Source of the DNA: an uncultured Eubacteriales bacterium
Lineage (GTDB): Bacteria; Bacillota; Clostridia; Oscillospirales; CAG-382
DNA length: 64,000 bases
NCBI GenBank assembly: GCA_934479825.1
Contig: CAKSOW010000007.1
Coordinates: 19,892-83,891 of the forward strand
Reading direction: 5' to 3'
In this document: piece by piece, positions 6,125 through 58,895 of the stretch
Layout: the number at the start of each line of letters is the position of its first letter
Numbering within the stretch: the first letter of the stretch is position 1
Notes under the pieces: generated by a model
Databases searched by the model: none
The model's input: the letters and a program-made list of their open reading frames with translations, nothing else
What the model was told of the DNA's origin: nothing
Program-made: the position numbers and the translations under genes

Positions 6125-6237
6125 AAATATTCGGACACTTCCTTTCTTAAAATATAGTATACCCGTTTTTCTTGCGGTTCGTCAACCAAAAAACGGAATT
6201 TTTCTTTTAATTATTGTTATCGCGGGAGGCAGGACAA

Positions 6238-15128: not shown

Positions 15129-15241
15129 ATAATGTACGGATATTATATCGGGCCGTCGTAGCGGCCAGTGCGGCTCGTTTGGAATAGTCAGGCGTGGCAT
15201 TTATGCCGGAAAAAATACAAAAACCGAAAGGAAACAGGCAA

Positions 15242-24263: not shown

Positions 24264-25040
24264 TTATTTTGTTCCGCAACGTTTTGCAAGTTCTTTGGCA
24301 ATTTCTAAGTAAGCTGCCGCTCCTTTGGAATGTTTGTCGAAATAGACGGCCGGCATTCCGAAACTGGGCGCTTCCGAAAGGCGCACGTTGCGCGGTACGG
24401 GCGTTGTGAAAAGTTTCCCGGGAAAGTGTTTTTTGATTTCTTCAAGCACCTGTACCGATAAGTTCAGTCTGCCGTCGAACATGGCAATGACTACGCCGAC
24501 CAAATCCAAGCGCGGATTGTATAGCCTTTTTATCTGCGAAATGGTGAGCGTCAGCTGGCTCAACCCTTCAAGCGCGAAGTATTCGCACTGCATGGGAACG
24601 ACCACGCCGTCGGCGGCGCTTAAAGCGTTAATGGTGAGAAGTCCGAGCGAGGGGGGGCAGTCGATCAGAATATAATCGTAGTCGGCACGCAGCGTGTCGA
24701 GTGCATTTTTGAGCTTGTATTGGCGATCCTTGACATCGACAAGTTCCAATTCCGCACCGGCCAGCGATATTTCCGACGGCAGTACATCAAGGTTATCAAA
24801 AGCCGTCTTGACGATACAGCCGTAGGGATTGGCGCCCATGATCAAGTCATAGGCCGAGTTGTCCTCGGTTTTTTCGGCTCCCACGCCGCTGGTGGCATTG
24901 CCCTGAGGGTCAAAATCCACAAGCAATACTTTGTGCCCGAGTATGCCGAGAGACGCGGCTAAGTTTACGGCGGAGGTTGTTTTTCCGACGCCGCCTTTTT
25001 GGTTGGCAAAGGCGAGAACCGTGCAGGGGGTTGAAGTCAT
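24264..25040 (-). CDS. soj: ParA/Soj family ATPase (no ParB/Spo0J gene adjacent)
   Basis: Deviant Walker A NQKGGVGKTT, plus DCPPSLG and a C-terminal region typical of chromosomal Soj. Start chosen at MTSTP (ATG at 25040), 6-7 nt after GGAGA. Confidence 0.85.
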   Translation of the reverse strand: MTSTPCTVLAFANQKGGVGKTTSAVNLAASLGILGHKVLLVDFDPQGNATSGVGAEKTEDNSAYDLIMGANPYGCIVKTAFDNLDVLPSEISLAGAELELVDVKDRQYKLKNALDTLRADYDYILIDCPPSLGLLTINALSAADGVVVPMQCEYFALEGLSQLTLTISQIKRLYNPRLDLVGVVIAMFDGRLNLSVQVLEEIKKHFPGKLFTTPVPRNVRLSEAPSFGMPAVYFDKHSKGAAAYLEIAKELAKRCGTK

Positions 25041-25053
25041 AGGCATTCTCCGT

Positions 25054-27060
25054 TTAGTTTTTGTTGCAAGCTTCGTTATAATGGTTGTCAATGGCTTGCT
25101 TTAATTGTTTCAAGGCGTCGGGAAGTGTGGTGTCGTTTAATTGGACGCCGGCCGCGTCATAATGACCGCCGCCGCCGAGGGCTTCGGTGATAAGCTGAAC
25201 GTTGACCGTCCCGTCTGAGCGCGCAGAAATGTGTACATTGCCATCGATACGGCATAAAACGAACGACGCGCACACGTTTTCCACCGTGAGCAAACGGTCG
25301 GCCGCCTTGGAGGCGGCAATCTTATCCTTTAAATCAGAATCCTTTTCACTGACCGAAATGGCGATTTTGTCTTTATAGATATGGATGTTGTTTTCAAACA
25401 CTGTTTCGCGCATGAAATCGCCGACCGAAGTGTCGAAAAGCTTTGTGGCAGCATAGGGTTCAGCGCCCTCACTTCGTAAGTACAGCGCCGCGCCGAACGT
25501 TTTCACACCGGTGTTTTTGGTAAACTGTTTGGTATCGAGAATGATGCCGGCAAAGAGCAGATTGGCTTCGGGGCGGGTGAGGGTTCCGGGAGGGGTAGCC
25601 TGTTCGAGAATCTCGCACATCAGTTCCGAAACCGAGGACGCGGCCGGTTCAATGTAGGCGATTTTCGGGGGATTGATGAATTCGCCGGTCTTGCGGTGGT
25701 GGTCGATGACTACAAAGGAGCTTGCCGATTCATACAGTTCGGGAAGCTCAAAGAACGGCGGATTGTTCACGTCGCAAACAACCAACAGCGTGTCCGAACG
25801 AATCAGCTCATGCGCCATTTCGCGGTCGATGAACAATTCATCATATTCGCCTGCCTGAAAACGCATGCTTTCAAATATTTTCTTCAAGTTGAAATCGTGA
25901 ATGTTGACAACGACATTGACCGGCGTTCCGAGAAATTTTGCCATGCGCGAAACGGCTACGCATGAGGCGATCGAGTCATGGTCGGCGTATTTGTGCCCCA
26001 TGACGATGACGTTTCCGCTTTTTTTGATAAGGCCGACCAATTCATTGGCAATCACGCGTGAACGGACCTTGGTTTTCTTCTGTACCGATTTGGAGCGGCC
26101 GCCATAATATTCGACACTGCTTTCGCTTTTCACGACCGCCTGGTCGCCGCCGCGCTGTAAAGCAAGGTCAAGAGCGCTGCGCGCCGCGCTCTCTTTTTCA
26201 GCAAGCGTGCCGCTGATCTTGGATACGCCGATTGAGGCCGTAAAGGGCATGGTGATGTTGTCGATCTCAATTTCGCGGATCTTATCGAGAATATCAAAAC
26301 GACTCTCGTCAAGTTTTTCAAAATGCCGCTGTTCAAAGATGATGATAAACTTGTCCTTGTCGTATTCCTTTAAAATGCCGCCTAAGGAGGCAGTCCATGC
26401 GTCAAGCGTACTGCCGATGAGGGCAAGCGCGGTGCGCTGTTTATCCTGAATGAACTGAACGGCCTCGGAAAAGTTGTCGATTACGACGAACGCAACCATG
26501 ACTGATTTCATTTCCAACTCTTTCTTCAAAGCGGTTAATTCGGTCGTGTCCTCCCAGACGGTAATACAGTGTCCCTTTCCGACGCTCTGCGTCTTGTAAC
26601 AGCTGACATTGTAATTTACACCGCGGAAAGAAACCGGAATCGGTTCGCCCGTGTCGCGGAACAGCCGCGCTGCGCTGAGCGACGGACTGAAATGTTCCGA
26701 CAGCTTTTTGCCGTACAGCGTTGTTTTTTCGCCGGCCGCCGCCAAAAAAGCTTTGTTGTACCAGACGATCTCACCCGTCTCACCGACAATGACCACCGGC
26801 GAGGCAAACGATGTGACAAAATTGAGCGTTAAGCCGGACAACATCGGGCCGTCCTTGGTCATGCCGCTTTTTTTGATTTCGCGCCATACGAAAACCAAGT
26901 GAATGATCAAATAGATTCCCGTAAAGACAAGACCTGCCGCACCAAGCGTTTTTTCTTGGCGCGCAAAGCAGGCGAGCGTGTACAGGATGAGAAGAACAAG
27001 TCCTGCAAACAGGCTTTTATGGGAACACAGCTTCTTTATATAGTCCTTGAAAGAAACCAT
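25054..27060 (-). CDS. gdpP: cyclic-di-AMP phosphodiesterase GdpP (DHH/DHHA1 family)
   Basis: Two N-terminal TM helices, a PAS-like region, a degenerate GGDEF region, a DHH motif (GHKYADHDSIAS) and the DHHA1 motif GGGHYDAAG. Length 668 aa. Confidence 0.85.
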   Translation of the reverse strand: MVSFKDYIKKLCSHKSLFAGLVLLILYTLACFARQEKTLGAAGLVFTGIYLIIHLVFVWREIKKSGMTKDGPMLSGLTLNFVTSFASPVVIVGETGEIVWYNKAFLAAAGEKTTLYGKKLSEHFSPSLSAARLFRDTGEPIPVSFRGVNYNVSCYKTQSVGKGHCITVWEDTTELTALKKELEMKSVMVAFVVIDNFSEAVQFIQDKQRTALALIGSTLDAWTASLGGILKEYDKDKFIIIFEQRHFEKLDESRFDILDKIREIEIDNITMPFTASIGVSKISGTLAEKESAARSALDLALQRGGDQAVVKSESSVEYYGGRSKSVQKKTKVRSRVIANELVGLIKKSGNVIVMGHKYADHDSIASCVAVSRMAKFLGTPVNVVVNIHDFNLKKIFESMRFQAGEYDELFIDREMAHELIRSDTLLVVCDVNNPPFFELPELYESASSFVVIDHHRKTGEFINPPKIAYIEPAASSVSELMCEILEQATPPGTLTRPEANLLFAGIILDTKQFTKNTGVKTFGAALYLRSEGAEPYAATKLFDTSVGDFMRETVFENNIHIYKDKIAISVSEKDSDLKDKIAASKAADRLLTVENVCASFVLCRIDGNVHISARSDGTVNVQLITEALGGGGHYDAAGVQLNDTTLPDALKQLKQAIDNHYNEACNKN

Positions 27061-32201: not shown

Positions 32202-33227
32202 ATGCCGCGCACTTCCCGACAGAAATTAAAACTGCTTTATTTAAAGGAATACCTTCTAAAAAACACCGACGAAACGCATGCCGTGACCGTGAAGGACATG
32301 GAAGAATACCTGGCAAGCTGCGGAATCAAGGCCGAACGCAAAAGTTTGTACGATGATATGGCAGTTCTTGCTGAAAGCGGTTTGGATATCGTTTCCGAAA
32401 AGCGCGACCGGAATATGTGGTATCATGTGGTGTCGCGCGAATTTGAGCTTTCCGAATTAAAACTCCTCGTAGACGCAGTGCTGGGTTCACGCTTTATCAC
32501 CGAGCGTAAGTCGGACGAGCTTATCCGCAAATTGGAAAGCTTATGCAGCCGTTTTGACGCTTATGCGCTTGACCGGCAAATGACGGTGGCCGGGCGTATC
32601 AAATCCATGAACGAGAGCATTTATTACAACGTTGATAAGATTCACACGGCAATTCGGGATAATACGCGTATCACATTCCGCTATTTTGACTATAACATCC
32701 GGAAAGAAAAGGTTTACAGGCATGGCGGCGCACTATACGAGGTCAGCCCGTTCGCCTTGTGCTGGGACGATGAAAACTACTATTTGGTGGCGTTTGACAG
32801 CGCACATCAGGCTATCCGGCATTACAGAGTCGATAAGATGAGCGGCCTTGAAGAAACGTCCTTGCACCGAGAGGGCAGGGCAGCCTTTCAAAAAGTGGAT
32901 GTTTCGGCGTATTCGCGCAAAGTTTTTTCCATGTTCGGCGGCGAAAGCGTCAAAGTGCGCATGGAGTTTGCCGAGGCGCTTGCCGGGGTGGTGTTCGACC
33001 GATTCGGTAAAGATATTTTTCTTTCGCCGGCAGGCAAGGGGTATTTTACGTTTGAAACTGAAATTGTGGTCAGTCCGCAGTTTTACGGTTGGTTGTTTTC
33101 TTTTGGCACAGACGCCAAGATCCTCTGGCCGCAGAGTGTAAAGGACGGTTTTACGGAATATCTGAGACAGACGGTGTCCTTATACGATGGCGGCATTGCC
33201 GCCTACCTGTTCTCACGCGAAGCGTGA
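32202..33227 (+). CDS. HTH plus WYL domain transcriptional regulator
   Basis: N-terminal winged-HTH region (QKLKLLYLKEYLLKNTDETHAVTVKDMEEYL) and a central WYL-like region (ITFRYFDYN...YEVSPFALCWDDENYYLVAFD...IRHYRVDKM). Confidence 0.7.
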   Translation: MPRTSRQKLKLLYLKEYLLKNTDETHAVTVKDMEEYLASCGIKAERKSLYDDMAVLAESGLDIVSEKRDRNMWYHVVSREFELSELKLLVDAVLGSRFITERKSDELIRKLESLCSRFDAYALDRQMTVAGRIKSMNESIYYNVDKIHTAIRDNTRITFRYFDYNIRKEKVYRHGGALYEVSPFALCWDDENYYLVAFDSAHQAIRHYRVDKMSGLEETSLHREGRAAFQKVDVSAYSRKVFSMFGGESVKVRMEFAEALAGVVFDRFGKDIFLSPAGKGYFTFETEIVVSPQFYGWLFSFGTDAKILWPQSVKDGFTEYLRQTVSLYDGGIAAYLFSREA

Positions 33228-33254
33228 GCTTGCCGCCCTGAAAGGGCGGCTGGG

Positions 33255-34330
33255 GAGCCTCTGTTACTTTTCGGAAAAGTAACAAAAGGGACGGTTTTAC
33301 GTTACTTTTTGCGGCGTGCAAAAAGTAACCAAAAAGCACGCGGGACTTCGTCCTGCGACCTCGGTTCAAAACCCGTGCGGTGCGGTTTTAGGTAAAAATT
33401 GAAACGCTCAGCGCATTAAGATTTTTCACAAAAATTTATTAGTGCCGCGATACGCACGGCCATGTTTTGAACCGGTGGAAAAGGGCGATTGCAGTGGAAA
33501 CGCAGAATCGGATTTTGCGGAAAATCGAGGTTGCGGTGCGGGCTTGACGCCGCAAGCGGTCGATGAAAAGAAAAATTGTACGTTATGTTTGTTGCAGTGG
33601 GAAAGAGAAATTGGCGTGGGATGTTAGAAAACTTAGCGTAATACTATGGCTTGGCATGACACAAAAGGTGTGTGGGCTGGCTGAAATTTTAAGATTTATT
33701 CCTACTTATTTGTGCGCGGAAAAAATGGAATTTTGGTATTTTTGAAACTTTTCGTTTCCTCAAAACATAGCGTACTGTCTGCAAAAAAGCAACTCTCACC
33801 AAACTTTCCTTTTTTTGAAAAACTGTTATCTGTTGTTTAAAAAACAGTATCCCACCAAAACCACCCATTCCATGAAACACATAACCTGCTGTCCACCCAA
33901 ATCGAATTCTGCCTTTTTATAAAAAACCACATATCCTTGCGTAGTAAAACACCCCTTTCGCACCGGTTCAAAATACTCCGAGCTATATGGCACAAGGCTG
34001 CAAATTCTTACAAAAATTCTTGATAGTTACACGACTTGCGTTTTAGTAAGTAATTCCCACGCTCGGAATTTTGAACCGTACTTGGGGTATCCAGAGGGGT
34101 GTACCCCTCTGGTGTACTTTTTGGTTACTTTTTCGTACAAGCGAAAAAGTAACATTAAAACGCCCCTTTTGCTTACTTTTCGCAAAGGCGAAAAGTAACG
34201 TAAAAACGTCCTTGGGGACTTTTTTGGGGGGCTTGGGGCACGCCGCAAAAAAGTAACAGAAAAACGTCCTCTTTTGCTTACTTTTCGAGAACCGAAAAGC
34301 ACCCTTTTTGAGGCTTTTCGGAAAAAGAAA
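33255..34330. repeat. family 2 structured non-coding locus, copy A (hairpin arrays, two CGGTTCAAAA-bounded IR elements, conserved core)
   Basis: No ORF above 103 aa and none conserved with copy B. Homologous in reverse complement to 56625-57445. Details are given in the findings. Confidence 0.85.
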
Positions 34331-34368
34331 AAAAGCACCGATACGGATTTCCGTATCGGTGCTTTTTG
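34321..34368 (-). terminator. bidirectional rho-independent terminator (serves the 34398-37364 gene)
   Basis: 13-bp stem GCACCGATACGGA / TCCGTATCGGTGC flanked by A- and T-tracts. Confidence 0.85.
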
Positions 34369-34397
34369 CGTAAGATCAATGCTTATGAAAAAAGGGC

Positions 34398-37364
34398 TTA
34401 CTTTTTGTCCGAAAGAATGCGGATATAGCGTCCCTCAATCGTATAGGAGAAACCGCAGATGTCACATAGAACATCTAAACTCAACATCGGCAGCGAATCG
34501 CAGAAAGCAAGCGGCATAGGTAACTTGTGCTTTTTGCCGTTTACCAAAACATAATCCTTGCCCTCGGTAAAATACATCTTTGTTGTACCGTGGAGCAGAT
34601 ACAGCGTGCGCTCATCGCGATACCATTCGTGATAGAAGCGAAGCCCCTCATAGGGACGGTTTTGCTCAAACGGAATAAAGACGCCTTTTTCAGTGATCCA
34701 CGGAAGAATCGACGGCAGATGAACCTTGCCGTCCACTGTGATGATCGGGGACTTGGTATCAGTGGTAAGTTCAATGGACTCGATCTCAAAACTGCCGGCG
34801 ATGTCGGTCGGGTCAAGCCGTAATCCGGTAATCGTGCCTTTCCAGGCGGCAAGGGAAGTCATATCGTAATAACAGTCGGTCATTTCGCCGCCTTTGATGA
34901 AAATATGGACTCCCTTGGATTCCGTCCAGACCTCGTCGGTGTCGGTGATAAAATAGACGCAGGAGTTTGCGCCGTCGCCGGAATTTGCTTTCAGACGGAT
35001 GTGCACACCTTTGACGGTTGCCGCGTCAATCGAAAGGCCGGTATGAATGATCTGCGGATCGAATTTATCGGATGTACCGCAAAGCTTTCCGTCACGGTTT
35101 TCGATGACAAGACCGTTTTCCGGATGCCAATAGGACGCGTCGGTCGGAATGTCCGCTACGTGCTCGGTCGGCTTGTTCTTTTCAAGATACTGTTCACAGC
35201 GCAATAAACTGCGTCCCTTGGGATATAAGTATCCGAGACGGTCAAGCTGATGCTCGTCGGGACGTACATCGATATGTTCTTCCGGCTCGTTGGTAAAGGC
35301 TTTGCGCATTTCGTCCAGATAGCCGAACCCATGTAGGTTCGACGGGCAGATATACGTTCCTTCACCGTATTCATTCCAGGTGGAGAACATGACCAGTTTC
35401 TTTTTCCAATCTTCGCCCTCGCTTGCCGGGAGAACGTCCTCTTTGAACCAGCGTAAGCACTCGCCCATATCTTCGCAGGTCATCTGCGGCGTGCGCGGAC
35501 GGTCCCAACCGATCGAATTGAACCCGGTGGAAACGGTGGGAACAACGTGAACCAGCTTCTTTTCGCGCTGTGCCGTGATCTGCGCCTTGGTGTAGTTCGG
35601 GTCAAAGCCCTGCGTTCCCCAGTTGTAAGCGTAAACGCCGTCAAAGCCGCAATTTTTGACCGCTTCGGTCGGTCCTCCGCAGGAGAGGAAGATAGCGCCG
35701 TCAAAACCGAGCTTTTTCACTTCTTCGCGGACATAGTCAAGCTGTTCTCTCACCGCATCTTCCGAACCGAAATCCTTGATAAGATTTCCTGAACCGAACA
35801 CGGCAATCAGCACTTTGTTGTCGATGGTGAAGTAACGCGGATCGGAGAAGAAATAATCCATCCAATACGGAACAATGTGTTTGCGGAATGCTTCGACCGA
35901 CGGATGCGCGCAGTTCATAGCCTCCCAAAGCAGGGCGAATTTCATGTAATCGCCGTATTTGGCATTGAAGTGACCGCCGTGAATGGCCGACGACAGACCA
36001 GTGGTGCAGATAGGTGCGTTCACCTGGCTGTTGTACCAGCAGTATAATTCAAAATCAAGTCCGTGTTCCGCCATCCATTTGATTTCCCAGTCGGCAACCT
36101 CCGGAAGTCCCTCATCGTAGTAACCCATATAGGTCTTGTTCTCGTGATAGGGAGAAACGGTGTCCCAACCCCAGTGGTCGCCGTTGCGCCAGAGGGAGCA
36201 GATGTTCATACCGACATAGTAGTCCTTCTTTTTCGGTAAAATCGGCGCCGGAACATAATCTGCCGGTTCGGGCTGCATTTCAAATGCAAAAATGTCGGTG
36301 AATTTCAAGATTCCGCCGGACGGCGCGGTGAACGACAACCGAAGTCCGTCCGCTTTTTTAGCACCGTCGGCTAACGGCAGTTCGCAGCACTTTTTGCCGC
36401 CTAACTTGATCAAGGCCTTGTTTGCGGCAAAACTCACTTCTACGCGGAGAGTCTGCCAGACGTTGACATGATGTTCGCGCAAAATCTGTTCTTCGTGCAG
36501 CAAAGCCTTGCCGTTGTCATGAAGCGTCAGAATCGGTTTTCTTCCGCTCGTTAAACTAACGGCGATGTCCTCGCCGACTGTTTTGGGAAGATATTTGATT
36601 TCTAAGCAAATCCCTGTTTTTACCGCGTCAAACTTCCGGTCAAGCGTTGCAGTCTTGCTGTCAGCAGTAAGGAGCGCATAGGTGGTGAGGCTCTGTCCCT
36701 CGGTGTAGGGACGGCGGTCGGCAAGCGCTTTTCCTTTGGCAGTCAGACGCCATGCGTCGCTCATCTTTCCGGGTATGGAAACATAGGCGCGGTCACAGAT
36801 CAGATAATTGATCCAAAGACGGGTCGTCAAGGGAATATAGCATGTCTGAACGCCTGCCGGCACGCCGATGATAAGGCGCGAAAGGCCTTTTCCGGCAAGC
36901 TTGAAAGAGCCGTAATTCATGTCGTCAAAGAAAACGGTCGCCGTTTTGCGGTCAAGATCAAATTCAATGCCGAGATAGTAGGTTTTGTTTTCGACGGCAA
37001 CCGGAATTTTTGTGCCGTTTACGCAGAAGAGACCGTCTTGGGCGGCAATTTCCAGCGCGACGGTTTCTTTTTTGTCTCCTGCGTCCAAAAAGCGCAGATA
37101 GAAGTTTTCGCCGTAGCGCAGACGGAAACTGTGGAAAAATCCGGCTTTTCCGGTTTTGACCGGAACGAAGCGGCGGGAAAGATACGGGTCAAAATCGCCC
37201 GTTTCATCCGAGCAGAGATAAATGCCCCGGATCTCTTCGCCGCGGGCGGTTCTCATGCCGCGGTTGTCAAAATTCCAGCCGCTCTGCGCATAGCCGCGCG
37301 AGCTCATGGTCTTATCGTCTATCAGGTAGACGGCGTCTTTTACGACGCGAGTGTCTTTTATCAT
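34398..37364 (-). CDS. multidomain GH99-like/WbsX-like glycoside hydrolase family protein with a C-terminal copper-amine-oxidase-N-like domain
   Basis: The central region (MGYYDEGLPEVADWEIKWMAEHGLDFELYCWYN ... FALLWEAMN ... STWNEYGEGTYI) resembles the WbsX/GH99-like family pattern as I recall it. No signal peptide is evident. The ATG at 37364 follows AAGGAG. Confidence 0.45.
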   Translation of the reverse strand: MIKDTRVVKDAVYLIDDKTMSSRGYAQSGWNFDNRGMRTARGEEIRGIYLCSDETGDFDPYLSRRFVPVKTGKAGFFHSFRLRYGENFYLRFLDAGDKKETVALEIAAQDGLFCVNGTKIPVAVENKTYYLGIEFDLDRKTATVFFDDMNYGSFKLAGKGLSRLIIGVPAGVQTCYIPLTTRLWINYLICDRAYVSIPGKMSDAWRLTAKGKALADRRPYTEGQSLTTYALLTADSKTATLDRKFDAVKTGICLEIKYLPKTVGEDIAVSLTSGRKPILTLHDNGKALLHEEQILREHHVNVWQTLRVEVSFAANKALIKLGGKKCCELPLADGAKKADGLRLSFTAPSGGILKFTDIFAFEMQPEPADYVPAPILPKKKDYYVGMNICSLWRNGDHWGWDTVSPYHENKTYMGYYDEGLPEVADWEIKWMAEHGLDFELYCWYNSQVNAPICTTGLSSAIHGGHFNAKYGDYMKFALLWEAMNCAHPSVEAFRKHIVPYWMDYFFSDPRYFTIDNKVLIAVFGSGNLIKDFGSEDAVREQLDYVREEVKKLGFDGAIFLSCGGPTEAVKNCGFDGVYAYNWGTQGFDPNYTKAQITAQREKKLVHVVPTVSTGFNSIGWDRPRTPQMTCEDMGECLRWFKEDVLPASEGEDWKKKLVMFSTWNEYGEGTYICPSNLHGFGYLDEMRKAFTNEPEEHIDVRPDEHQLDRLGYLYPKGRSLLRCEQYLEKNKPTEHVADIPTDASYWHPENGLVIENRDGKLCGTSDKFDPQIIHTGLSIDAATVKGVHIRLKANSGDGANSCVYFITDTDEVWTESKGVHIFIKGGEMTDCYYDMTSLAAWKGTITGLRLDPTDIAGSFEIESIELTTDTKSPIITVDGKVHLPSILPWITEKGVFIPFEQNRPYEGLRFYHEWYRDERTLYLLHGTTKMYFTEGKDYVLVNGKKHKLPMPLAFCDSLPMLSLDVLCDICGFSYTIEGRYIRILSDKK

Positions 37365-37427
37365 AAAAAACACACTCCTTTCGGAATTCGGGACTGTTTT
37401 TATGTCGTTTTTTTCCGGCATTTTCCC

Positions 37428-37685: not shown

Positions 37686-38153
37686 ATGCAGGACATTCGG
37701 ATCAAAACGGCAGAGTTATATGCACGGTATGCGGATATACTTTACCGAACGGCATATGCCAAGCTGTTATCTGCGCACGACGCGGAGGACGCCGTTTCCG
37801 AAACCTTTGCAAAATATCTGGGTAAAACGCCCGAATTTCGCGATTCGTCGCACGAAAGAGCTTGGTTCTTGCGCGTATGTATCAATACCTGCACCGACAT
37901 CATGCGCCGGCGCTCGGTGCGCTCCTATACGCCGCTCGACGAGCTGGCGGAGGTTCTCCCGGCCGCTGAAAAGGACGCGCATGTTCTCGAAAGCGTGTAT
38001 GCGTTGCCGGAGAAATACCGATTGTGCGTTTTATTGTATTATTTTGAAAATCTTAACGTGGAAGAGACGGCAGAGTCTTTGAAAATATCCGTCTCCGCTG
38101 TGAAAATGCGGCTCTCCCGCGCAAGAGACATGTTAAAGACCGAACTTGTGTAA
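37686..38153 (+). CDS. ECF-type RNA polymerase sigma-70 family factor
   Basis: Region 2 (AEDAVSETFAKYL...ERAWFLRVCINTCTDIMRRR) and region 4 HTH (LNVEETAESLKISVSAVKMRLSRARDML). Length 155 aa. Confidence 0.85.
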   Translation: MQDIRIKTAELYARYADILYRTAYAKLLSAHDAEDAVSETFAKYLGKTPEFRDSSHERAWFLRVCINTCTDIMRRRSVRSYTPLDELAEVLPAAEKDAHVLESVYALPEKYRLCVLLYYFENLNVEETAESLKISVSAVKMRLSRARDMLKTELV

Positions 38154-47344: not shown

Positions 47345-47495
47345 AACCATATTTTCAGGGCAGGGAGCATTTCCCTACCGGCGGTAAAGTCCGAGGGCGG
47401 AGCGGCGTTTCCTATCTTTTACGCACCCGCAGATCCGGTAAGTTTCCAAAAACAATTCCGGAACCGACAGTATAGTCTGGATAAAGAGAAGATGT
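47345..47495 (+). promoter_or_regulatory. FMN riboswitch (RFN element)
   Basis: Conserved RFN core strings CAGGGCAGGG...CCCTACCGGCGGTAA...CCGACAGTATAGTCTGGATAAAGAGAAGA, located upstream of a RibU-like gene. Confidence 0.85.
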
Positions 47496-47591
47496 GGTAA
47501 GCGTTATTTAAGCAGTTTTGCCGGATAACAGCTTATCTTGTTATGTCCTGAGACGAATTGTCCCGGGAATTTTTTGTTTTGAGGTGTTATT

Positions 47592-48161
47592 ATGCAAAAA
47601 AGCTTAAAAAAGACGGCTTTTGTCGGCGTTTTGTCGGCTATGTCGTTTGTCTTGTTTCTGTTCCCGAAATTTCCGATTCTGGCGGCGTTCCCATGGCTCG
47701 ATCTTGATCTCTCAGACGTGCCGGGCTTGTTTGCCTCTGTTATGATTTCGCCGCTTGCCGGACTTCTTGTAGCGCTGATCAAAAATGTGCTCCATTTGGC
47801 TGTTACATCCACAGCCATGATTGGCGAACTGTCCAATTTCCTGATCAACGGTTCCTTCGTTTTCGCAGTTGGGCTCTTGTATCACTATCTGTTTAAAGCG
47901 TCCGGAAAAAGCAGTATACTCGCGTTTTCTCTCGTTCTGGGCTCGGCTGTACAGATCCTTGCCGCGGTTCTTGTCAATTACTTCCTTATGATTCCGATGT
48001 ATTCGGCATTCGTCAATTTCTCCGAGCTCGGCGGCGCAGAAAAATATATTCTTGCCGGCGTAATTCCGTTTAACCTTATTAAGGATATTCTTGTTTCGGC
48101 GATATTCTTTGCCTTGTTCCGTCTGCTTTACCGGAAATTTCATGGTTATTTACATAAATAG
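47592..48161 (+). CDS. ribU: riboflavin ECF transporter S component
   Basis: Similar to B. subtilis RibU/YpaA as recalled (LDLSDVPG vs IDFSDVPA; AGVIPFNLIKDIL vs AGILPFNMIKGIV). The upstream FMN riboswitch supports the call. Confidence 0.75.
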   Translation: MQKSLKKTAFVGVLSAMSFVLFLFPKFPILAAFPWLDLDLSDVPGLFASVMISPLAGLLVALIKNVLHLAVTSTAMIGELSNFLINGSFVFAVGLLYHYLFKASGKSSILAFSLVLGSAVQILAAVLVNYFLMIPMYSAFVNFSELGGAEKYILAGVIPFNLIKDILVSAIFFALFRLLYRKFHGYLHK

Positions 48162-50633: not shown

Positions 50634-52922
50634 ATGGGAGAAAAAAAGATCAACCGCGAATGGGTCAAAACCTTCGCTATTATATTTTTGGCAGTTCTTT
50701 TGGTACTTACATTCTTTTCCAATACCATTATGAACATGACATTGCCGGAGGTTTCGACCGAATACATTCAGTACGGCTCGATTAAGACGCAGGTGCGCGG
50801 TTCGGGAACGATTACCGCGTCGGACAATTACAGCGTCACCATCCCGACTACACGTGAAATTTTAAAAGTTGCCGTCAGCAAAGGTACACAGGTTCAAAAA
50901 GGCGATGTGTTGTTTCTTCTTGCAGAGGGCGACAGCGACGAATTGGAAGCGGCAAAGACCAATTACGATAACCTGAATTATGAGTATGCGAAAATGTTGC
51001 TCGATTCGGCCAATAACGACGATTTTGCCGATAAGCGGCTCGCCATTGAACAGCAGAAAGAGGACTTGAACGACGCGAAAACCAAGCTTGCCGGTTTTTC
51101 CGAAACACAAAAAGCCATTGAGCTTGCCAAATTGGATGTCCGCGCTGCCGAAAAGGCTGTGACGCTCAAACAAAATCAGATTTCGGAATTGGAAAGCGAA
51201 AAGACCGCAATCGGCTACACCCCGACCGAAGACGAAGTGCTGACCGGCAAGGACAACAGCGTTTCCTACGACCAATATGCCAATGCCACCAAACAGCTTG
51301 ACGCGGCTGAGGAAAAGATCGATTCCGCCAAAGCGGAACTCACAAAGCTCCAAGCCGAACAGAACACCGTCAAGAATACCTACGATAAGGTCAAGCGCGA
51401 ATACGACGAGATCAACGGCAAGATCGAAACTCCGCTTGCTACTCTTGAAAAAGAAATTGAAACGTCCGACCGCAATATTGAATCCCTCGATAACGATTTA
51501 AAGTATCTCAAGCAGGAATTCTATAACCAGACGACCAACAGCAACCTTGAAAAAGCCTATGACGATTATAAGGACGAACAGGATAAATATCGCAAGGCCA
51601 AGAGAAAATTGGATAACCTGCGTTCCAGCGGCACGGCTACCGCAGAAGAGATTGCCAAGGCCGAACAGGAATACAAAGCGGCAATGGATCGTGTTGACAG
51701 CGCATATGACTACTACGAATCCATTCTTACCGATGAAAAGAACAGTGCAGACGCAATCGAAAAGAACCTTGCCGCCAAGGAAACCGAATTGAAGTATGCG
51801 CTCAAAGACAATACCGATTTAAAGGCGAAATTGGAAGAAACCAAAGAACTTGACAAGCAGTTGAAGTCCAAGAAAACGGAATTGGATAAAGCCGAAACTG
51901 CCTATAACAGCGCAACCGACAAGGCAAATGCGGCACAGACTACCTATGACAATGCCGTGGCGGACAAAGAAGTGCTCTCCAAGAGCCTTGAAAAGGTCAG
52001 AAACGGTTATAAGTACGTCAAGTACAAGGATTACGAAGACCGTATCGAAGCCGAGAAAACCAACCTCGAAAATCTCAATATTGCACTTGACAACGAAAAA
52101 GAAAAACTCTCTGATTTGCAGGCTCAAAGCTCCGACAGCGAAGAAACCCTGAAAGAACGTGTAAAGACGCTGGAACGTCAGCTTCTTACTTCAACGCGCG
52201 AATTGGAGCAGAGTATTGCCGACGCCGGCGACAAGAATAAATCGCAGGCATTGGAGCTTGAAAAGAAAAAGAAAGAAATTGACAAGGCCGCCAAAGAAAT
52301 TACCAAGCTGGAAGAAAAGTATACGTCTACTGAGGTTTTAGCACCTATTTCGGGAGAAATTGTTTCACTTAATGTAACAAGCGGACAAAAAACTCAGCCA
52401 GATACTTCATTATGTGAAATTGCTCTCGCTGAGCAAGGCTATAAGATGACTATGACGGTTACCCAAGAACAAGCAGCAAAACTTCGTATGGGTGTTCAAG
52501 CAGAGGTTACGAGTTACATTCCAGGTGGAAAGACGATAACAGCAACGCTTACTGCCATAAAAAATGATACTGCCAATCCCGGAAGCCGTCAAAAAATTCT
52601 TGAATTTAGCGTTGAAGGTGACGGAGTTAAGGTAAATGATACACTTTCGGTAGCCGTCGGCGACAAGAACGCAAGCTACGACAGCACCGTTCCCAACACG
52701 GCTATCCGCGAGGACAGCGACGGCAAGTATATCCTTATCGTTGAATCCCAGTCCACGCCGATCTCGACGCGCTATAAGGCAAAACGCGTCGCTGTCAACG
52801 TCGTTGCAAGCGACGATACCCGTTCGGCTATCTCCGGCGATTTCCAGAACTATTCGTATGTCATTGCTACATCCTCCAAACCGATCAATAACGGAGAGCA
52901 GGTGAAGCTGATTGAAAACTAA
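50634..52922 (+). CDS. HlyD/membrane-fusion-protein family adaptor with an unusually long coiled-coil insertion
   Basis: N-terminal TM helix, a lipoyl-like half (IKTQVRGSGTITA...VSKGTQVQKGDVLFLL), about 450 aa of heptad-rich E/K/A/L sequence, a second lipoyl half (VLAPISGEIVSLNV), and a beta-barrel region. Confidence 0.7.
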   Translation: MGEKKINREWVKTFAIIFLAVLLVLTFFSNTIMNMTLPEVSTEYIQYGSIKTQVRGSGTITASDNYSVTIPTTREILKVAVSKGTQVQKGDVLFLLAEGDSDELEAAKTNYDNLNYEYAKMLLDSANNDDFADKRLAIEQQKEDLNDAKTKLAGFSETQKAIELAKLDVRAAEKAVTLKQNQISELESEKTAIGYTPTEDEVLTGKDNSVSYDQYANATKQLDAAEEKIDSAKAELTKLQAEQNTVKNTYDKVKREYDEINGKIETPLATLEKEIETSDRNIESLDNDLKYLKQEFYNQTTNSNLEKAYDDYKDEQDKYRKAKRKLDNLRSSGTATAEEIAKAEQEYKAAMDRVDSAYDYYESILTDEKNSADAIEKNLAAKETELKYALKDNTDLKAKLEETKELDKQLKSKKTELDKAETAYNSATDKANAAQTTYDNAVADKEVLSKSLEKVRNGYKYVKYKDYEDRIEAEKTNLENLNIALDNEKEKLSDLQAQSSDSEETLKERVKTLERQLLTSTRELEQSIADAGDKNKSQALELEKKKKEIDKAAKEITKLEEKYTSTEVLAPISGEIVSLNVTSGQKTQPDTSLCEIALAEQGYKMTMTVTQEQAAKLRMGVQAEVTSYIPGGKTITATLTAIKNDTANPGSRQKILEFSVEGDGVKVNDTLSVAVGDKNASYDSTVPNTAIREDSDGKYILIVESQSTPISTRYKAKRVAVNVVASDDTRSAISGDFQNYSYVIATSSKPINNGEQVKLIEN

Positions 52923-53996: not shown

Positions 53997-56501
53997 ATGA
54001 AGAAAAGACTTCTCAGCTTAGCGCTGGCCGCCGTTATGACGGTTTCGTCGCTTGCGCTTACCGCCTGCAATCCGAGTTCCGACGTGAGCGGAAAACCCGG
54101 AAAAGGCGCACTCACCACAAGAGATCTCACCAATATCTATAAGGCGGATTCCGTCAGCACGGTGGGGACTATCTTTGAGAATCTTCAAATCAATCAGGTC
54201 TACAAAATGAACGACGGTAAGTTGCTTGTCTGCGGCTATACCACCGAAGACTACGAAGACAAGTATTACATCACCGATATTGATTTCAAGAACGCCTCCG
54301 AAATGACTATTAAAAAGGCAGAGGGGCAGAATTCCGGAACCTACATTCAGAACGTGACGGTCAATCCGACCGACGGCTCTATCTGGTATGTCAAGAACGT
54401 CTACTCGTATTCGGACAACACGGACGGCGATATTTCCGATACAATGGAAAAATATGCGATGCCGACCGTTATCGGCGGTGCAGACGGAGCAGCCGTAGCT
54501 ATCGGTTCTGATATAGCCATTGATTCCGGCTTTGCCGTCGACGCTACCGAGGATGCCAACGCTTACTACCTTGTCAAGGTGGACGCAGAGGGCAACATCG
54601 TTTCGGAAACATATATTTCCGCTGACCTTACGGTGACCGACGAAAGCGGTAACAGCTATCAATCCTCTCCCAGCAACCTGGTGCTTGCAGGAAACAAGCT
54701 TCTTTTCTGCGTTGATACGGTTGTTAAGGTCTATAATGCAGACACTGCTACCAAAGAAAATGAATATAAGATCACCGATCAGTACATCGACAACCTGTAT
54801 GTCGGCGCTTCCGGTACGGTTTATTATGTGCTCTGGGGCGAAAACGGCCAAGAGCTTTATAAGTTTGACCCCGAAACCGGCAAGAGCGATAAGACTGAAT
54901 TTACCGGCCTTGACAATCTTTATAGCTACCAGTTCAACGCCGGAACAAACGGGTATGAGTTTATTTTGACGAATGAAGACAGCATTTTGGGTTACAATCC
55001 GGGCGATGCAGCTCCTACCGAAATTTGCAGTTACACGAATTCCGACCTGGATATGACATCCGGAAATGTCAGTGCTCCGATCTTCTTGGAGGATGGCCGT
55101 ATTCTTCTCTGTTTCTATGACTATGATACCAGCCAGAACGATGTTCTTCTTCTCTCCAAGGTCGATCCGTCTATGGTCAAGGAAAAGTATATCATTACGC
55201 TTGGCGCACGCTATATGGACTATCAGATCAAGAGAGCGCTTTTGAAGTTCAACCGCACCAGCGACGAGTATAAGGTTGTGTTCAAGGACTATTCCAAGTA
55301 CGACAATGAATCCAACAATTATAACGGTGCTTACGAAGCTCTTGATAAGGATATCCTTTCCAAGAACGATGCGCCCGATATTATTGTTGTCGATTCCTAT
55401 GGCATGGACTACAAGAGCTACATTTCCAAGGGCATTTTTGCCGACCTTGAAAAGTATATGGATGCAGACGAAACTTTCAACAAGGACGATTATCTGGCAA
55501 ACGTATTTGAAGCAGAAAAGATCAACGGTCACTTGTACACCATCTCCCCGGCTGTAAGCTTTATGACGCTTGCCGGCAAGAAATCCATTTTTGGCGACAG
55601 AACACATTGGAATATGAAAGAATTCCTTGAAATGCACCGTTCGCTTGGTGAGGGCGAGCAGATGCTTCCCGAATCGGCCAGAGACAGCTACGGTTCTGTT
55701 ATGTTGATGATTGCCGAAAACGAATTTATCGACGATAACGGCAACTGCACGTTTGACAGCGAAGAATTCAAGGATATTTTGGCTTATCTGAAAGATCTCC
55801 CGGCCGATTACACGGCATATCAGGAAAAATGGCAGAACAACGACAACTATTGGCAGGAGCAGGAGCTTTCGTACAGCAAGGGCACGACCAAGCTTTATAA
55901 CGCTTATATCTACAACTTCGATATGATTCCGGAGTTGGAGAACTATATGGGCGAAGAAGTGACGCTGATTGGTTATCCGACGGCCACCGAAGGCGCCCAG
56001 GGCGTTCTGATCCAGCCGGCTACCGAACTTGCTATCAACGCCAATTCCAAGGTAACAGCCGGTTGTTGGGAAGTTATCAAGTATTTGCTTTCCGATGAGT
56101 ACCAGAACCAGTTCTCCGGCGACCGGAGCGGAAACAGGGGATACTACGGTTCGTATCTGTTCCCGATCAAAAAGAGCATTATTGAGAAGAAGAAACAGAA
56201 CGATATTCTTCCGCAATACTACACGGACTATGACGAAAACGGCAACGAGATTCAGGTAGAACGTCCGCGTTATACGTGGATCGGCGATACGAAAGTCGAA
56301 AAGCGTAAGAGTACCGAGGAAGATGTGGCGCGTCTGTATGACATATTTACGAACGCAAACTTCTTTGTACGCGAAAACAAAGAAATTACCGATATCGTTA
56401 TGAACGAAGCTCAGCCGTATTTTGATAATCAGAAGTCGGTAGACGAAGTAGTCGGCATTATCAACAGCCGTGTTCGTCTGTATGTCAACCAACAGAGATA
56501 A
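53997..56501 (+). CDS. large lipoprotein: N-terminal beta-rich domain fused to an extracellular solute-binding (family 1-like) domain
   Basis: Lipobox LALTAC. The C-terminal ~450 aa resemble sugar-binding proteins (DIIVVDSYGMDYKSYISKGIFADLEKYM...). It is the last gene of the operon that carries the two permeases. Confidence 0.65.
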   Translation: MKKRLLSLALAAVMTVSSLALTACNPSSDVSGKPGKGALTTRDLTNIYKADSVSTVGTIFENLQINQVYKMNDGKLLVCGYTTEDYEDKYYITDIDFKNASEMTIKKAEGQNSGTYIQNVTVNPTDGSIWYVKNVYSYSDNTDGDISDTMEKYAMPTVIGGADGAAVAIGSDIAIDSGFAVDATEDANAYYLVKVDAEGNIVSETYISADLTVTDESGNSYQSSPSNLVLAGNKLLFCVDTVVKVYNADTATKENEYKITDQYIDNLYVGASGTVYYVLWGENGQELYKFDPETGKSDKTEFTGLDNLYSYQFNAGTNGYEFILTNEDSILGYNPGDAAPTEICSYTNSDLDMTSGNVSAPIFLEDGRILLCFYDYDTSQNDVLLLSKVDPSMVKEKYIITLGARYMDYQIKRALLKFNRTSDEYKVVFKDYSKYDNESNNYNGAYEALDKDILSKNDAPDIIVVDSYGMDYKSYISKGIFADLEKYMDADETFNKDDYLANVFEAEKINGHLYTISPAVSFMTLAGKKSIFGDRTHWNMKEFLEMHRSLGEGEQMLPESARDSYGSVMLMIAENEFIDDNGNCTFDSEEFKDILAYLKDLPADYTAYQEKWQNNDNYWQEQELSYSKGTTKLYNAYIYNFDMIPELENYMGEEVTLIGYPTATEGAQGVLIQPATELAINANSKVTAGCWEVIKYLLSDEYQNQFSGDRSGNRGYYGSYLFPIKKSIIEKKKQNDILPQYYTDYDENGNEIQVERPRYTWIGDTKVEKRKSTEEDVARLYDIFTNANFFVRENKEITDIVMNEAQPYFDNQKSVDEVVGIINSRVRLYVNQQR

Positions 56502-56588
56502 ATAAGTAATTTTCAAGAAAAATGCGGCTTTTTTTAAAAGAAATGCCGCGTGAAAAAGAATGCAAGGGCTGCATGCCCTTGCATTCTT

Positions 56589-56627
56589 GCCGCCCGATGG
56601 CTTGATCATCGGGCGGCTTTTTCTTTT
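56589..56627 (+). terminator. rho-independent terminator (second of two consecutive hairpins)
   Basis: Stem GCCGCCCGATG / CATCGGGCGGC followed by TTTTTCTTTT. It is preceded by the hairpin AGAATGCAAGGGC / GCCCTTGCATTCT. Confidence 0.8.
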
Positions 56628-57445
56628 CCGGAAAAGCCCGGATAGGGGCTTTTCGTTTCGCGAAAAGCATATAAGAGACGGTTTTTGTCTTACTTTTTCG
56701 CTTGTACGAAAAAGTAACCAAAAAGTACACCAGAGGTCTGCTGACCTCTGGGCTCTGGGGAACGGTTCAAAATTCCGAGCGTGGAGTTTATTTGTTAAAC
56801 CGCAAGCCGTGTGACTATCAAGGAATTTTACGGAAATTTGCAACCTTGTGCCATATAGCTCGGAGTATTTTGAACCGGCGCGAGACGGCGGTTTTACTGT
56901 GTAAGGATTTATGATTTTTTATGAAAAGGCATACTCTGATTTGGGTAGACAGCAGGTTATGTGTTTCATGAAAAGTGAGAGTTTGGTGGGAGGTTGTTTT
57001 TGAGAGGACAGAAAGCTATTATTTAGGAAAACGGAAAGTTTTGTAAGAGTGCAAAAATCCGATTTTCTACATATATACAAACCGCAGGTTTACTTCTACT
57101 CAACCCACCCCAACTTTCCATTTCCACCGCACCAAATATAACGTACAGTTTCCCTTTTAAACGATCGCTTGCGGCGGCAAGACCGCACCGCAACTTCGAT
57201 TTTCCACAAAACCCGATTCTGCGTTTGTACTACACTTCCGTTTCGCACCGGTTCAAAGCCTGAAAGCTGTTTTAGAGACAAAAAACTACAATTTTTATCA
57301 AAGGCATGCCTGTGTAGAGCTTTGAACCGCTCTCCGGGAGTCCAGAGGGCTATTTTGCAGCGGCGCTTCGCCGCCCCTCGGTCTGCTTTTGGTTACTTTT
57401 CGCAGAGGCGAAAAGTAACAGAAAAACGTCCTTTGGGAACTTGGG
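56625..57445. repeat. family 2 structured non-coding locus, copy B (reverse-complement homologue of 33255-34330)
   Basis: Manual alignment of the reverse complement with copy A. Matching blocks: 44 nt with 43 identical, 33 nt with 32 identical, and 68 nt with 60 identical. The order of architectural modules is the same in both copies. Confidence 0.85.
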
Positions 57446-57471
57446 GCACCGCCAAAAACTATAATTTCCAT

Positions 57472-57516
57472 AAAAAAAGACATGCGGTGCCACAGAGGTT
57501 CCTGTGACACCGCATG
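57472..57516 (-). terminator. rho-independent terminator of the fucosidase gene
   Basis: 15-bp stem CATGCGGTGCCACAG / CTGTGACACCGCATG, with a minus-strand T-tract (plus-strand AAAAAAAG at 57472-57479). Confidence 0.85.
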
Positions 57517-57569
57517 CCAAAACTCCAATTCTTTTGCTGCCTTTTTTAAAAGGACAAAAGCCCGTATTG

Positions 57570-58895
57570 TTACTTCAAGAACAGCTCAATGACCGGCACA
57601 ACCACATCGGGCGCAGGGACGGGGAGCGATAAGACAAGCAAATCGTCCGCTTCGGTGCGACAGTCGCTGAAATGCTTGCTGGACTTTTCCGTGAATTTGA
57701 TTTCACTGCCATCGTGTAAAAATTGCGCATAGTCAACCTTTCCGGCAAAACCGCGCATTTCCAAAAAGGCGTACGGATATTCCATCAAATGAACATATAA
57801 CCGCTTTCCGTCCGCACTCTGCGTAAACCGACAGCCGCGCGGAACAGGCAGATCCGGATCTGCCATGGTGCAGCCGTATATCGACCGACTGTTTAATCTC
57901 ATCCATTCGCCGTAAACTTCCAAAGCCGCGTCGGCACGCTTGTCAAAATTGCCTCGTGAAGTCGGTCCGACATTCATTAAAAGATTTCCGCCGATACAAA
58001 CCGTGTTGATGAGCATTTCAATGAGCATGCGCGGCGATTTCCAGCTCTTTTCGTCGCGATGATATCCCCAAGAGCCGGAAAACGTCTGGCAGGCCTCCCA
58101 GGTGACGCGTTCGCCGGTTTTCGGATGTTTCGGCCAGTCCAATACCTGATATTGCTCCGGCGTCCATAAGTCTTGTTCTAAATCGGCACGATTGTCAATA
58201 ATGATGTTCGGCTGTAACGAGCGAACGAGTGCAATAAGCTTTTCGGATTCCCATTCGTTTTTGCCCTTGGCGCCGCCGTATTGCATCCAAGGCTTGACCG
58301 ACGCAGGAGCGGGGTTGGTGTAGGAAAAATCTAACCATAAAATATCGATTTTGCCGTAGTTGGTCAAGAGTTCTGTCAGCTGATTCCGCATGTACTCCGC
58401 ATACTTGTGCACATCGCGTCCCTTGTCCAATTCTTCGGCATTCGGGTCATTGCGGCGCGGATGAATCGAATCGATCGGAAACTCCGGATGATGCCAGTCG
58501 ATGAGAGAGTAGTAAAAACCGACATGTAAGCCCTCGGCACGAAATGCATCGGCATATTCTCTGACAAGATCTCTGCCAAACGCGGTGTTGGTAATCTTGT
58601 AGTCCGTGAATTGGCTGTCAAACAGACAAAAGCCCTCATGGTGCTTGGTGGTGAGAACGGCATATTTCATGCCGGCCGCTTTTGCTTTTTTGGCCCATTC
58701 GCGCGCATCGAACAGATCCGGATCAAAGTGGTTGAAATATTTCTCATACTTTTCCTCGGGTATGAATTCCAAGGTCTTGACCCATTCATGACGTGCCGGC
58801 ATGGCATATAAGCCGAAATGGATAAACATGCCGAATCGGTCATGAATGAACCAGCTTGTATCACCAAGAGTTTTGTGTTCGGGGAATAATGGCAT
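57570..58895 (-). CDS. alpha-L-fucosidase (GH29)
   Basis: WFIHDRFGMFIHFGLYAMPARHEW ... AGMKYAVLTTKHHEGFCLFDS is the GH29 N-terminal catalytic signature. Length 441 aa, with no signal peptide. Confidence 0.9.
   Translation of the reverse strand: MPLFPEHKTLGDTSWFIHDRFGMFIHFGLYAMPARHEWVKTLEFIPEEKYEKYFNHFDPDLFDAREWAKKAKAAGMKYAVLTTKHHEGFCLFDSQFTDYKITNTAFGRDLVREYADAFRAEGLHVGFYYSLIDWHHPEFPIDSIHPRRNDPNAEELDKGRDVHKYAEYMRNQLTELLTNYGKIDILWLDFSYTNPAPASVKPWMQYGGAKGKNEWESEKLIALVRSLQPNIIIDNRADLEQDLWTPEQYQVLDWPKHPKTGERVTWEACQTFSGSWGYHRDEKSWKSPRMLIEMLINTVCIGGNLLMNVGPTSRGNFDKRADAALEVYGEWMRLNSRSIYGCTMADPDLPVPRGCRFTQSADGKRLYVHLMEYPYAFLEMRGFAGKVDYAQFLHDGSEIKFTEKSSKHFSDCRTEADDLLVLSLPVPAPDVVVPVIELFLK

Follow-up and report, generated by a model that had tools for sequence, protein, structure and literature searches.

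A dispersed repeat family of about 1 kb without open reading frames, mostly at convergent gene junctions of uncultured gut Clostridia

Bacterial interspersed mosaic elements (BIMEs) of enterobacteria are clusters of repetitive extragenic palindromic (REP) sequences and stay below about 300 bp; REP clusters contain only REP units and short linkers, and a RAYT transposase is associated with them. The BOX elements of Streptococcus pneumoniae have the composition boxA-boxB(n)-boxC and a length of about 100 to 400 nt, and miniature inverted-repeat transposable elements (MITEs) are usually smaller than about 600 bp. A stretch of 64,000 nt from an uncultured Eubacteriales bacterium (GenBank assembly GCA_934479825.1, contig CAKSOW010000007.1, positions 19,892 to 83,891; “the window”) contains two related loci in opposite orientation, copy A on the plus strand and copy B on the minus strand. 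Both are complete members of a dispersed repeat family of about 0.9 to 1.05 kb that is free of conserved open reading frames (ORFs).

The region of copy B, positions 56502 to 57569, was homologous as its reverse complement to positions 33228 to 34397 in MAFFT and blastn alignments, which bore out an earlier sequence-only reading that had described it as a second, oppositely oriented copy with mosaic conservation. The alignments of B with A showed 78.5% identity over 405 nt and 81% over 158 nt, and the core identity was 73% in 716 aligned columns. Three highly similar blocks were exactly as claimed, with 43 of 44 positions identical between 33963-34006 (A) and 56835-56878 (B), 32 of 33 in block II (33871-33903 and 56938-56970), and 60 of 68 in block I (33498-33565 and 57159-57226). 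The identity was clumped: the variance in 20-nt windows was 10.8 versus a binomial expectation of 3.9, and none of 5,000 column permutations reached the observed value (p<0.0002). The longest identical runs comprised 47 and 35 nt, compared with a permutation mean of 18 nt, and the 47-nt run (34105-34151 and 56690-56736) represents the same arm haplotype in both copies. The extra sequence reported for the centre of copy A was real, since the MAFFT alignment showed two gaps in B, of about 57 and about 53 nt, opposite A. Comparison with the whole family assigned one of these gaps to a deletion in B and the other to an insertion in A, and about 50 to 80 nt of the central region of A were found only in this copy. 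Two motifs were essentially confined to loci A and B within the window, GTTACTTTTYG with 15 matches (3.6 expected) and CGGTTCAAAR with 8 matches (0.85 expected).

The search for further copies in related metagenomic DNA revealed the family. The homology of A and B stood, their limitation to a pair did not, since at least 15 copies were present in one genome. An exact 20-mer from module 2 led to three copies on short contigs of a single “uncultured Clostridia” metagenome-assembled genome (MAG; CAKSHV01, Hadza gut), plus two chance matches. A different 20-mer led to 17 metagenome contigs, 14 of which originated from the single assembly ERZ857757. These 14 contigs had about 7.2- to 8.5-fold coverage each and carried different housekeeping genes, including hydF, der, mnmE and gyrA/parC-like, fusA-like, ABC and MatE genes. 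A profile built from five copies identified 15 full-length copies in the ERZ857757 contigs, one of them not selected by the 20-mer pattern, and about 10 partial copies at contig ends. Copy numbers refer to the DNA that was fetched and are hence lower bounds: at least 15 full copies in one metagenomic genome, three in a related MAG and two in the window. All related sequences were metagenomic. Public collections were scanned with exact 20-mers, and the invariance of both 20-mers is partly an ascertainment effect. The pairwise identity of the copies ranged from 70 to 83%, and this range was the same within one genome and between two species. In other assemblies, contigs with the flanking genes of the window stopped inside the element or at its arms; the element breaks short-read assemblies.

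A comparison of a spurious ORF of the element with 5.8 billion proteins returned only 8 unnamed clusters without Pfam domains, all from gut metagenomes, which therefore indicates a narrow distribution of the family; further element sites were reached by this search. The family was not found in plasmid and phage collections by blastn, and scans of viral contigs with three patterns gave nothing or only generic hairpins. No Rfam 15 family reached its gathering threshold at A or B, and at E<5 only sub-threshold matches at chance level appeared. No relevant description of the family was found in the literature.

The order of the parts was constant in all copies. In the orientation of copy A, it begins with the hairpin units h3 (GGGCTTTTCCGGAAAAG), h2 (GCTTTTCG-TTTCG-CGAAAAGC) and h1 (GTTACTTTTTCG-loop-CGAAAAAGTAAC), whose number varies, and continues with a GC-rich hairpin, a site S (CGGTTCAAA), the module-1 interior of 59 or 91 nt, and an inverted S with the adjacent sequence CCGGTGCGAAAGG. 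The unique sequence of about 400 nt with the blocks I, I' and II comes next, and then CACCGG-S, the module-2 interior of about 95 nt, another inverted S, a GC-rich hairpin with a 4- to 7-nt spacer and a T-run, and finally hairpin units again. The four CGGTTCAAA(A/G) sites in the order > < > < thus delimit two modules of 80 to 115 nt. The interior of module 2 is the most conserved stretch of the family, and in copy B it includes TGGCAC-N4-TTGCA and CTTGATAG. In module 1 of copy B (short type), an arm change, G-C versus A-T, matched the long type of copy A. The arms of the element, which include CGGTTCAAAAT, enclose a conserved core of about 700 nt, and the outer boundary is fuzzy, with a varying number of hairpin units.

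When the family consensus was compared with its own reverse complement, positions 58 to 223 matched positions 837 to 1005 with 81% identity over 170 nt, which represents terminal inverted repeats, and reverse-strand profile matches covered the whole element. An additional inner inverted repeat of 28 nt (TTTGAACCGGTGCGAAAGG) was located at the inner S sites and flanked the unique centre. With this self-complementarity of 170 nt at the ends and 28 nt inside, the element is of the foldback type and bears long terminal inverted repeats. The T-run behind the GC-rich hairpin faces outward. Versions of the hairpin stems differed by compensatory changes, including a paired deletion (GTTAC/GTAAC versus GTTC/GAAC), and the arm variants were discrete haplotypes that had been freely combined. 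Moreover, the spacer in front of the T-run was complementary to the h1 loop in each haplotype (GTAC/GTAC, TCTGC/GCAGA, GGCGTG/CACGCC and GCGTGC/GCACGC). This was found at 56718-56729 with 56700-56706 in copy B, at 34113-34123 with 34135-34141 in copy A, and in 30 arms of other copies. The mean match was 4.8 nt compared with 3.26 ± 0.22 nt after random re-pairing; this test was register-free because shifts in the T-run register create false mismatches when pairs are counted by columns. The complementarity may represent a pseudoknot, a switch or a by-product of the origin of the palindromes.

Table 1. Positions of the features of copies A and B in the window
Feature	Positions	Strand	Basis or remark
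Copy B	56504..57469	-	nhmmer profile match, E=6e-258; alignments; flanking genes
B left arm (terminal inverted repeat): unit AAAGGACGTTTTT, hairpin h1 57392-57419, GC hairpin region 57330-57377	57330..57465	-	
B module 1, short type: arms CGGTTCAAAGC / GCTTTGAACCG around 59 nt	57249..57329	-	
B conserved block I	57159..57226	-	alignments
Conversion-like patch in B	57094..57185	-	27 differences in 92 nt compared with strains L012 and L017
B conserved block II	56938..56970	-	family conservation about 0.9
B module 2: arms CGGTTCAAAATacTCCGAGC / GCTCGGAATTTTGAACCG around the most conserved interior of the family	56763..56877	-	
B right-arm GC-rich hairpin (56730-56751), spacer TGTAC and T-run	56718..56751	-	outward-facing terminator-like site
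B right-arm hairpin units h1 (56690-56717), h2 (56648-56668), h3 (56623-56639)	56623..56717	-	
Terminator of gene 53997-56501, outer edge of element B	56589..56617	+	
Copy A	33239..34374	+	nhmmer matches 33239-33805 and 33795-34374
A left arm: hairpins 33262-33284, 33301-33329; GC hairpin 33339-33357	33262..33357	+	
A module 1, long type: arms CGGTTCAAAAC / GTTTTGAACCG, extension CCGTGCG / CGCACGG	33362..33474	+	
A central region: block I 33498-33565, block I' ~33575-33625, block II 33871-33903	33498..33903	+	
A module 2	33964..34078	+	
A right arm: GC hairpin and T-run 34091-34122	34091..34327	+	
A right-arm hairpin units	34124-34153, 34173-34198, 34281-34299, 34312-34327	+	

The sequence information is non-coding, as had been proposed. 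Both copies contain a 61-aa ORF, and these ORFs share FEPV and diverge thereafter, in agreement with the sequence-only reading. Across 22 copies no ORF was conserved in frame, start or length, and shared stop codons existed only at the DNA level. The short ORFs in both copies could be taken as the remains of a protein-coding gene, or the two loci as a local segmental duplication with an identity that is uneven by chance. This explanation was refuted and is hardly conceivable: the ORFs differ in frame, start and length between the copies, the 8 unnamed clusters from the spurious-ORF search lack Pfam domains, the flanks are unrelated, the family is dispersed, and the identity is over-dispersed at p<0.0002.

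Each copy might instead be a gene for a non-coding RNA (ncRNA), or a divergent pair of such genes, with the blocks acting as functional RNA such as a seed or a protein-binding site, the GC-rich hairpins with T-runs as terminators, and a multi-copy state as in some small RNA (sRNA) families. The conservation of the blocks in deeply diverged copies, the terminator-like hairpins with T-runs at both ends, whose stems vary in a compensatory manner across the copies, and the spacer-loop complementarity that covaries in three to four haplotypes would agree with this explanation. So would the folding of the modules into long hairpins (z about −4) and the inner helix of module 2, which exhibits a few G-U changes and one compensatory change. 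However, the modules fold in this way through their inverted repeats only and do so on either strand, and the covariation of hairpins and inverted repeats is equally explained by DNA palindromes. For the centre, no convincing consensus RNA fold was obtained in 439 columns (RNAalifold, −8.8 kcal/mol forward and −19.6 kcal/mol reverse). About 30% of its pairs were G-U on both strands, and only 2 to 5 pairs were left with G-U forbidden. A G-U-rich helix on the reverse strand was rejected as an artefact of the method, the G-U excess being equal on the forward strand and the structure being gone without G-U pairs. Single-sequence z-scores of the whole centre were unremarkable (−2.6 to +0.6, depending on copy and strand), and those of block I alone were −1.1 and −0.8 on the two strands. 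The description of the locus as “structured” is consequently weak with respect to RNA, with robust pairings only in inverted repeats and hairpins. The absence of an Rfam match even at E<5, of a conserved σ70-like promoter, and of any need of an RNA gene for a mirror-symmetric DNA architecture also count against an ncRNA, which leaves this explanation doubtful. An antisense function was discarded as well, as no complement of at least 16 nt to the core occurred in about 320 kb of masked flanks.

With respect to promoters, no σ70-like promoter was conserved, since no aligned promoter-like site occurred in more than 3 of the 22 copies. The segment TTGCAA-N17-TGATAGT (33996-34027), which had been suggested as a promoter, did not hold as a conserved σ70 site: A and B (with the strain L012 allele of B) are the only copies whose −10 motif has a final T, the others having G, C or A at this position, and a promoter scan of A and B did not call TTGCAA-N17/18-(T)GATAGT. 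A σ54 site was rejected, the spacing of TGGCAC-N4-TTGCA being one base shorter than that of the σ54 consensus.

Inverted repeats of 11 to 20 nt around segments of about 60 to 95 nt, together with the TTGCAA...GATAGT motif in A and B and the exchange of variant modules at or near the CGGTTCAAA sites, would be features of invertible or shuffling segments, as in an inverton or shufflon, which are flipped by a site-specific recombinase and switch an internal promoter. This is very improbable. The module interiors had the same orientation relative to the centre in 22 of 22 copies, no gene is positioned for switching since the 3' ends of genes lie on both sides, the promoter motif lacks conservation, and the window contains no recombinase gene.

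Evaluation of the blocks shared by A and B needs to consider the other members of the family. In 20 other copies, the conservation was 0.82 at columns where A equals B and 0.55 where A differs from B (r=0.53, p=4.5e-54). The blocks shared by the two copies are thus the blocks shared family-wide, which argues for selection, or for a source lineage under constraint, as the force that preserves them, and against a recent exchange between the two copies. Selection on specific segments, one of the two causes considered at the outset, was in this way supported, and the second, patchy gene conversion, also found support in a strain comparison. The conspecific strain L012 was identical to the window over kilobases of flanking sequence, yet differed inside element B: 27 of 92 nt were different at 57094-57185, the adjoining 570 nt were identical, and additional clusters of differences were at 56637-56673 and 56737-56756. 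The same sequence of the 57094-57185 patch was present in L017, an independently assembled second sample, and is therefore no assembly artefact. The orthologous pair L019/L038 displayed the same contrast between flanks and interior. Identical flanks around a patchily different interior indicate that copies exchange patches by ectopic gene conversion. Arm types and module-1 types occurred in all combinations among the copies. Both processes, family-wide selection and patchwise conversion, are behind the mosaic.

Other processes were rejected. Homogenisation of the two arms within a copy was not visible, as the identity of left and right arms was 0.498 in the same copy and 0.501 for different copies. 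A diversity-generating retroelement was discarded because all substitution types occurred and because no reverse-transcriptase domain was found in Pfam scans of the window proteins. Outside of the element, the window differed from the otherwise identical L012 by about 96 positions in a patch of about 400 nt (52200-52700) within the HlyD-like gene 50634-52922, and this patch looks like a recombination import.

Copy B fills the space between the 3' ends of two convergent genes, 53997-56501 (plus strand), which encodes 834 aa without a Pfam match, and 57570-58895 (minus strand), which encodes an alpha-L-fucosidase. Copy A lies likewise between the 3' ends of the convergent genes 32202-33227 (plus strand; WYL/WCX regulator) and 34398-37421 (minus strand; WbsX-like glycosidase of 1007 aa), and the flanks of A and B are unrelated. 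In the family, 9 of the 13 copies with both flanks readable were positioned between convergent genes, and 26 of 34 flanks were gene 3' ends. The edge of the element was 3 to 100 nt away from neighbouring stop codons, and the outermost part often included the terminator hairpin of the neighbour; a hairpin like GCCGCCCGATGG, which is similar to the terminator at 56589-56617, recurred in other copies.

This strong enrichment at gene 3' ends and convergent junctions, with the inclusion of the terminator hairpins of neighbours, would be expected of BIME-like intergenic modules that are maintained by the host as terminators, stabilisers of mRNA 3' ends or sites for nucleoid or topoisomerase proteins, and that spread by recombination instead of transposition. 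Mosaic combinations of palindromic units, conservation without evidence of recent transposition, and clusters of hairpin units without a core (L027 3990-4216 and the L009 remnant described below) also agree with such modules. On the other hand, the same 1-kb unit at 15 or more unrelated loci would be left unexplained, BIMEs comprise a few hundred bp at most and have neither a unique core of about 400 nt nor modules bounded by 9- to 10-mers, and to the authors' knowledge no binding protein for the element has been described. Maintenance by the host alone is accordingly a lesser possibility.

In seven strain contigs (L009, L010, L011, L013, L015, L016 and L018), the fucosidase gene was followed by about 450 nt of hairpin-unit remnants in place of the core of B (7327-7906 in L009). 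Unrelated genes came next, encoding 892 aa and an SLH/WbsX-like protein of 1560 aa. With remnants and different downstream genes in seven strains, the element therefore marks a strain-variable, polymorphic junction. The possibility that the alternative arrangement arose through an inversion between A and B was rejected, as the downstream proteins were unrelated. Other contigs contained further arrangements. A cluster of hairpin units without an adjoining core was situated upstream of a gene for a WbsX-like protein of 1731 aa (L027 3990-4216); hairpin units can therefore stand alone, like REP sequences. Two full direct copies surrounded a single gyrA/parC-like gene (PF00521; L028 6601-7511 and 9900-10823), and recombination between them would delete this gene. 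Two copies at a distance of 5.7 kb (L041 2-307 and 6036-6563) bounded a contig and enclosed a TRAP-transporter operon, a locally high density of the element.

From the observed architecture, dispersal, block conservation and conversion, it may be inferred that the family belongs to the non-autonomous interspersed elements, as MITEs, foldback elements or BIMEs do, and that its repeated sites (S, the hairpin units and the central blocks) serve as DNA for a protein provided in trans. The probability of this interpretation is roughly one half. The element would have spread, or would still slowly spread, through the trans-supplied protein, which would recognise the repeated arm sites as well as CGGTTCAAA. 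This protein, or one of the host, would use the conserved internal blocks as cis-acting DNA sites, genes next to the element would be insulated by its outward-facing terminators, and the mosaic of A and B would result from purifying selection on the protein sites plus patchwise conversion between copies.

Several observations weigh against a mobile element of this kind. Pfam scans of the 38 window proteins did not detect a transposase or recombinase in the 64 kb, a Y1-transposase gene included, and no such gene recurred beside the copies in about 300 kb of fetched flanks. The only recurrent neighbours of the copies were paralogous GTPases and a glycosidase family, not a mobile-element protein, and the window, in which mfd, a dnaA-family gene, parA, fusA, tuf and sporulation genes are located, is ordinary chromosomal DNA. 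No transposase-encoding parent element that shares the ends of the family was found in the window, in the flanks of about 300 kb, or in plasmid, phage and viral collections. The sequence-only reading had also mentioned fragments of a longer, ORF-bearing element, and such an element was not found either. Neither a target-site duplication nor sharp ends were established, with the outer boundary changing with the number of hairpin units. The most conserved parts, module 2 and block II, are internal instead of terminal, an uncommon arrangement among MITEs. In the only comparison of a filled with an “empty” allele, the latter was no clean empty site, being a remnant joined to different downstream genes. 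No pair of near-identical copies existed within a genome (maximum 83%), and recent transposition is therefore not demonstrated.

The interpretations as a non-autonomous interspersed element, as an ncRNA gene and as a BIME-like module are not mutually exclusive. More tentatively, the family could be a previously undescribed chromosomal element of gut Clostridia, namely a foldback unit of about 1 kb without ORFs that is maintained by selection and serves as the substrate of a trans-acting recombinase or of a DNA- or RNA-binding machinery, with copies that coevolve by constant patchwise conversion. It would then be more than a MITE in decay. The substrate would be the four CGGTTCAAA sites, the covarying hairpin and spacer-loop arms and the unstructured conserved blocks.

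Should the family be what it looks like, element DNA would make up about 1% or more of the chromosomes of these uncultured gut Clostridia; this figure is an extrapolation that takes the genome size as 2 to 3 Mb and the number of copies of about 1 kb as about 20. The family would provide a natural system for ectopic gene conversion and for selection on non-coding DNA in bacteria, and the conserved 9- to 10-mer sites and blocks would be handles for finding the protein that recognises them. Knowledge of the family also explains why contigs break, and why small spurious ORFs appear, in the MAGs of this lineage.

Other features of the window were recorded besides the repeat. An open frame of 941 codons (54018-56843, minus strand) is antisense to the 834-aa gene 53997-56501 (plus strand) and extends into element B; as the sense product has no Pfam match, gene calls in other assemblies are the sole indication of the expressed strand. 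Near copy A, a gene for a sigma factor of the extracytoplasmic function (ECF) type is located just past the glycosidase gene (37686-38153, plus strand), and the WYL/WCX regulator gene adjoins the copy; no link between the element and either of these two genes was found. The sole Rfam match in the window was a full-length flavin mononucleotide (FMN) riboswitch (RF00050, 76.5 bits) at 47347-47497 (plus strand), about 95 nt upstream of the ORF 47592-48161. Genes for a DnaA-family ATPase (15194-16681), parA/soj (24264-25091) and mfd (6214-9798) are also present, and the region may be close to the replication origin.

Comparison with the known systems reveals similarities to all of them; the element behaves most like BIMEs or BOX elements, with mosaic palindromic units at gene ends, and like foldback elements or MITEs, with long inverted arms and no ORF. 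Like BIMEs, the element is extragenic, located mostly at gene 3' ends or convergent junctions, ORF-less and multi-copy, and it is composed of palindromic units and short motifs in variable number and in discrete variants. Unlike BIMEs, it comprises about 1 kb, in which a conserved centre of unique sequence (about 400 nt) is accompanied by two CGGTTCAAA-bounded modules, it resides in Clostridia, its hairpin units have no sequence similarity to REP, and no RAYT-type gene was seen in the window. With BOX elements it shares the features of a modular intergenic repeat in Firmicutes with variable internal units, complementary ends, predicted stable hairpins and no known transposase, whereas BOX elements are shorter, show no sequence similarity to it, and have neither a long unique core nor the four-site > < > < layout. 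Gut-bacterial invertons also have short inverted repeats around a segment of about 100 bp with a promoter-like motif, but in this family no flipped copy and no adjacent invertase were found, and there is no downstream gene to regulate. With the large bacterial ncRNAs OLE, ROOL and GOLLD and with multi-copy sRNA families it has in common that several hundred nt of non-coding DNA are conserved in Firmicutes and that the 3' ends are terminator-like; in contrast to them, it has no covariance-model match (Rfam 15), no rich conserved structure, a symmetric DNA architecture and a high copy number. Like MITEs, for instance the Correia elements (CREE) of Neisseria, it is non-coding, bears terminal inverted repeats, is dispersed and strain-polymorphic and breaks assemblies, and long arms made up of sub-repeats are also present in eukaryotic foldback transposons. 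Unlike MITEs, it has 0.9 to 1.05 kb and is thus larger than typical bacterial MITEs, there are no young near-identical copies, neither a target-site duplication nor a parent insertion sequence was detected, and conservation is higher in the interior than at the termini. The size of the element is consequently outside the range of the BIME and BOX kinds as well as that of the MITE and foldback kinds, and neither its conserved core of unique sequence (about 400 nt) nor the four-site layout of S has a counterpart in BIME, BOX, foldback or MITE elements.

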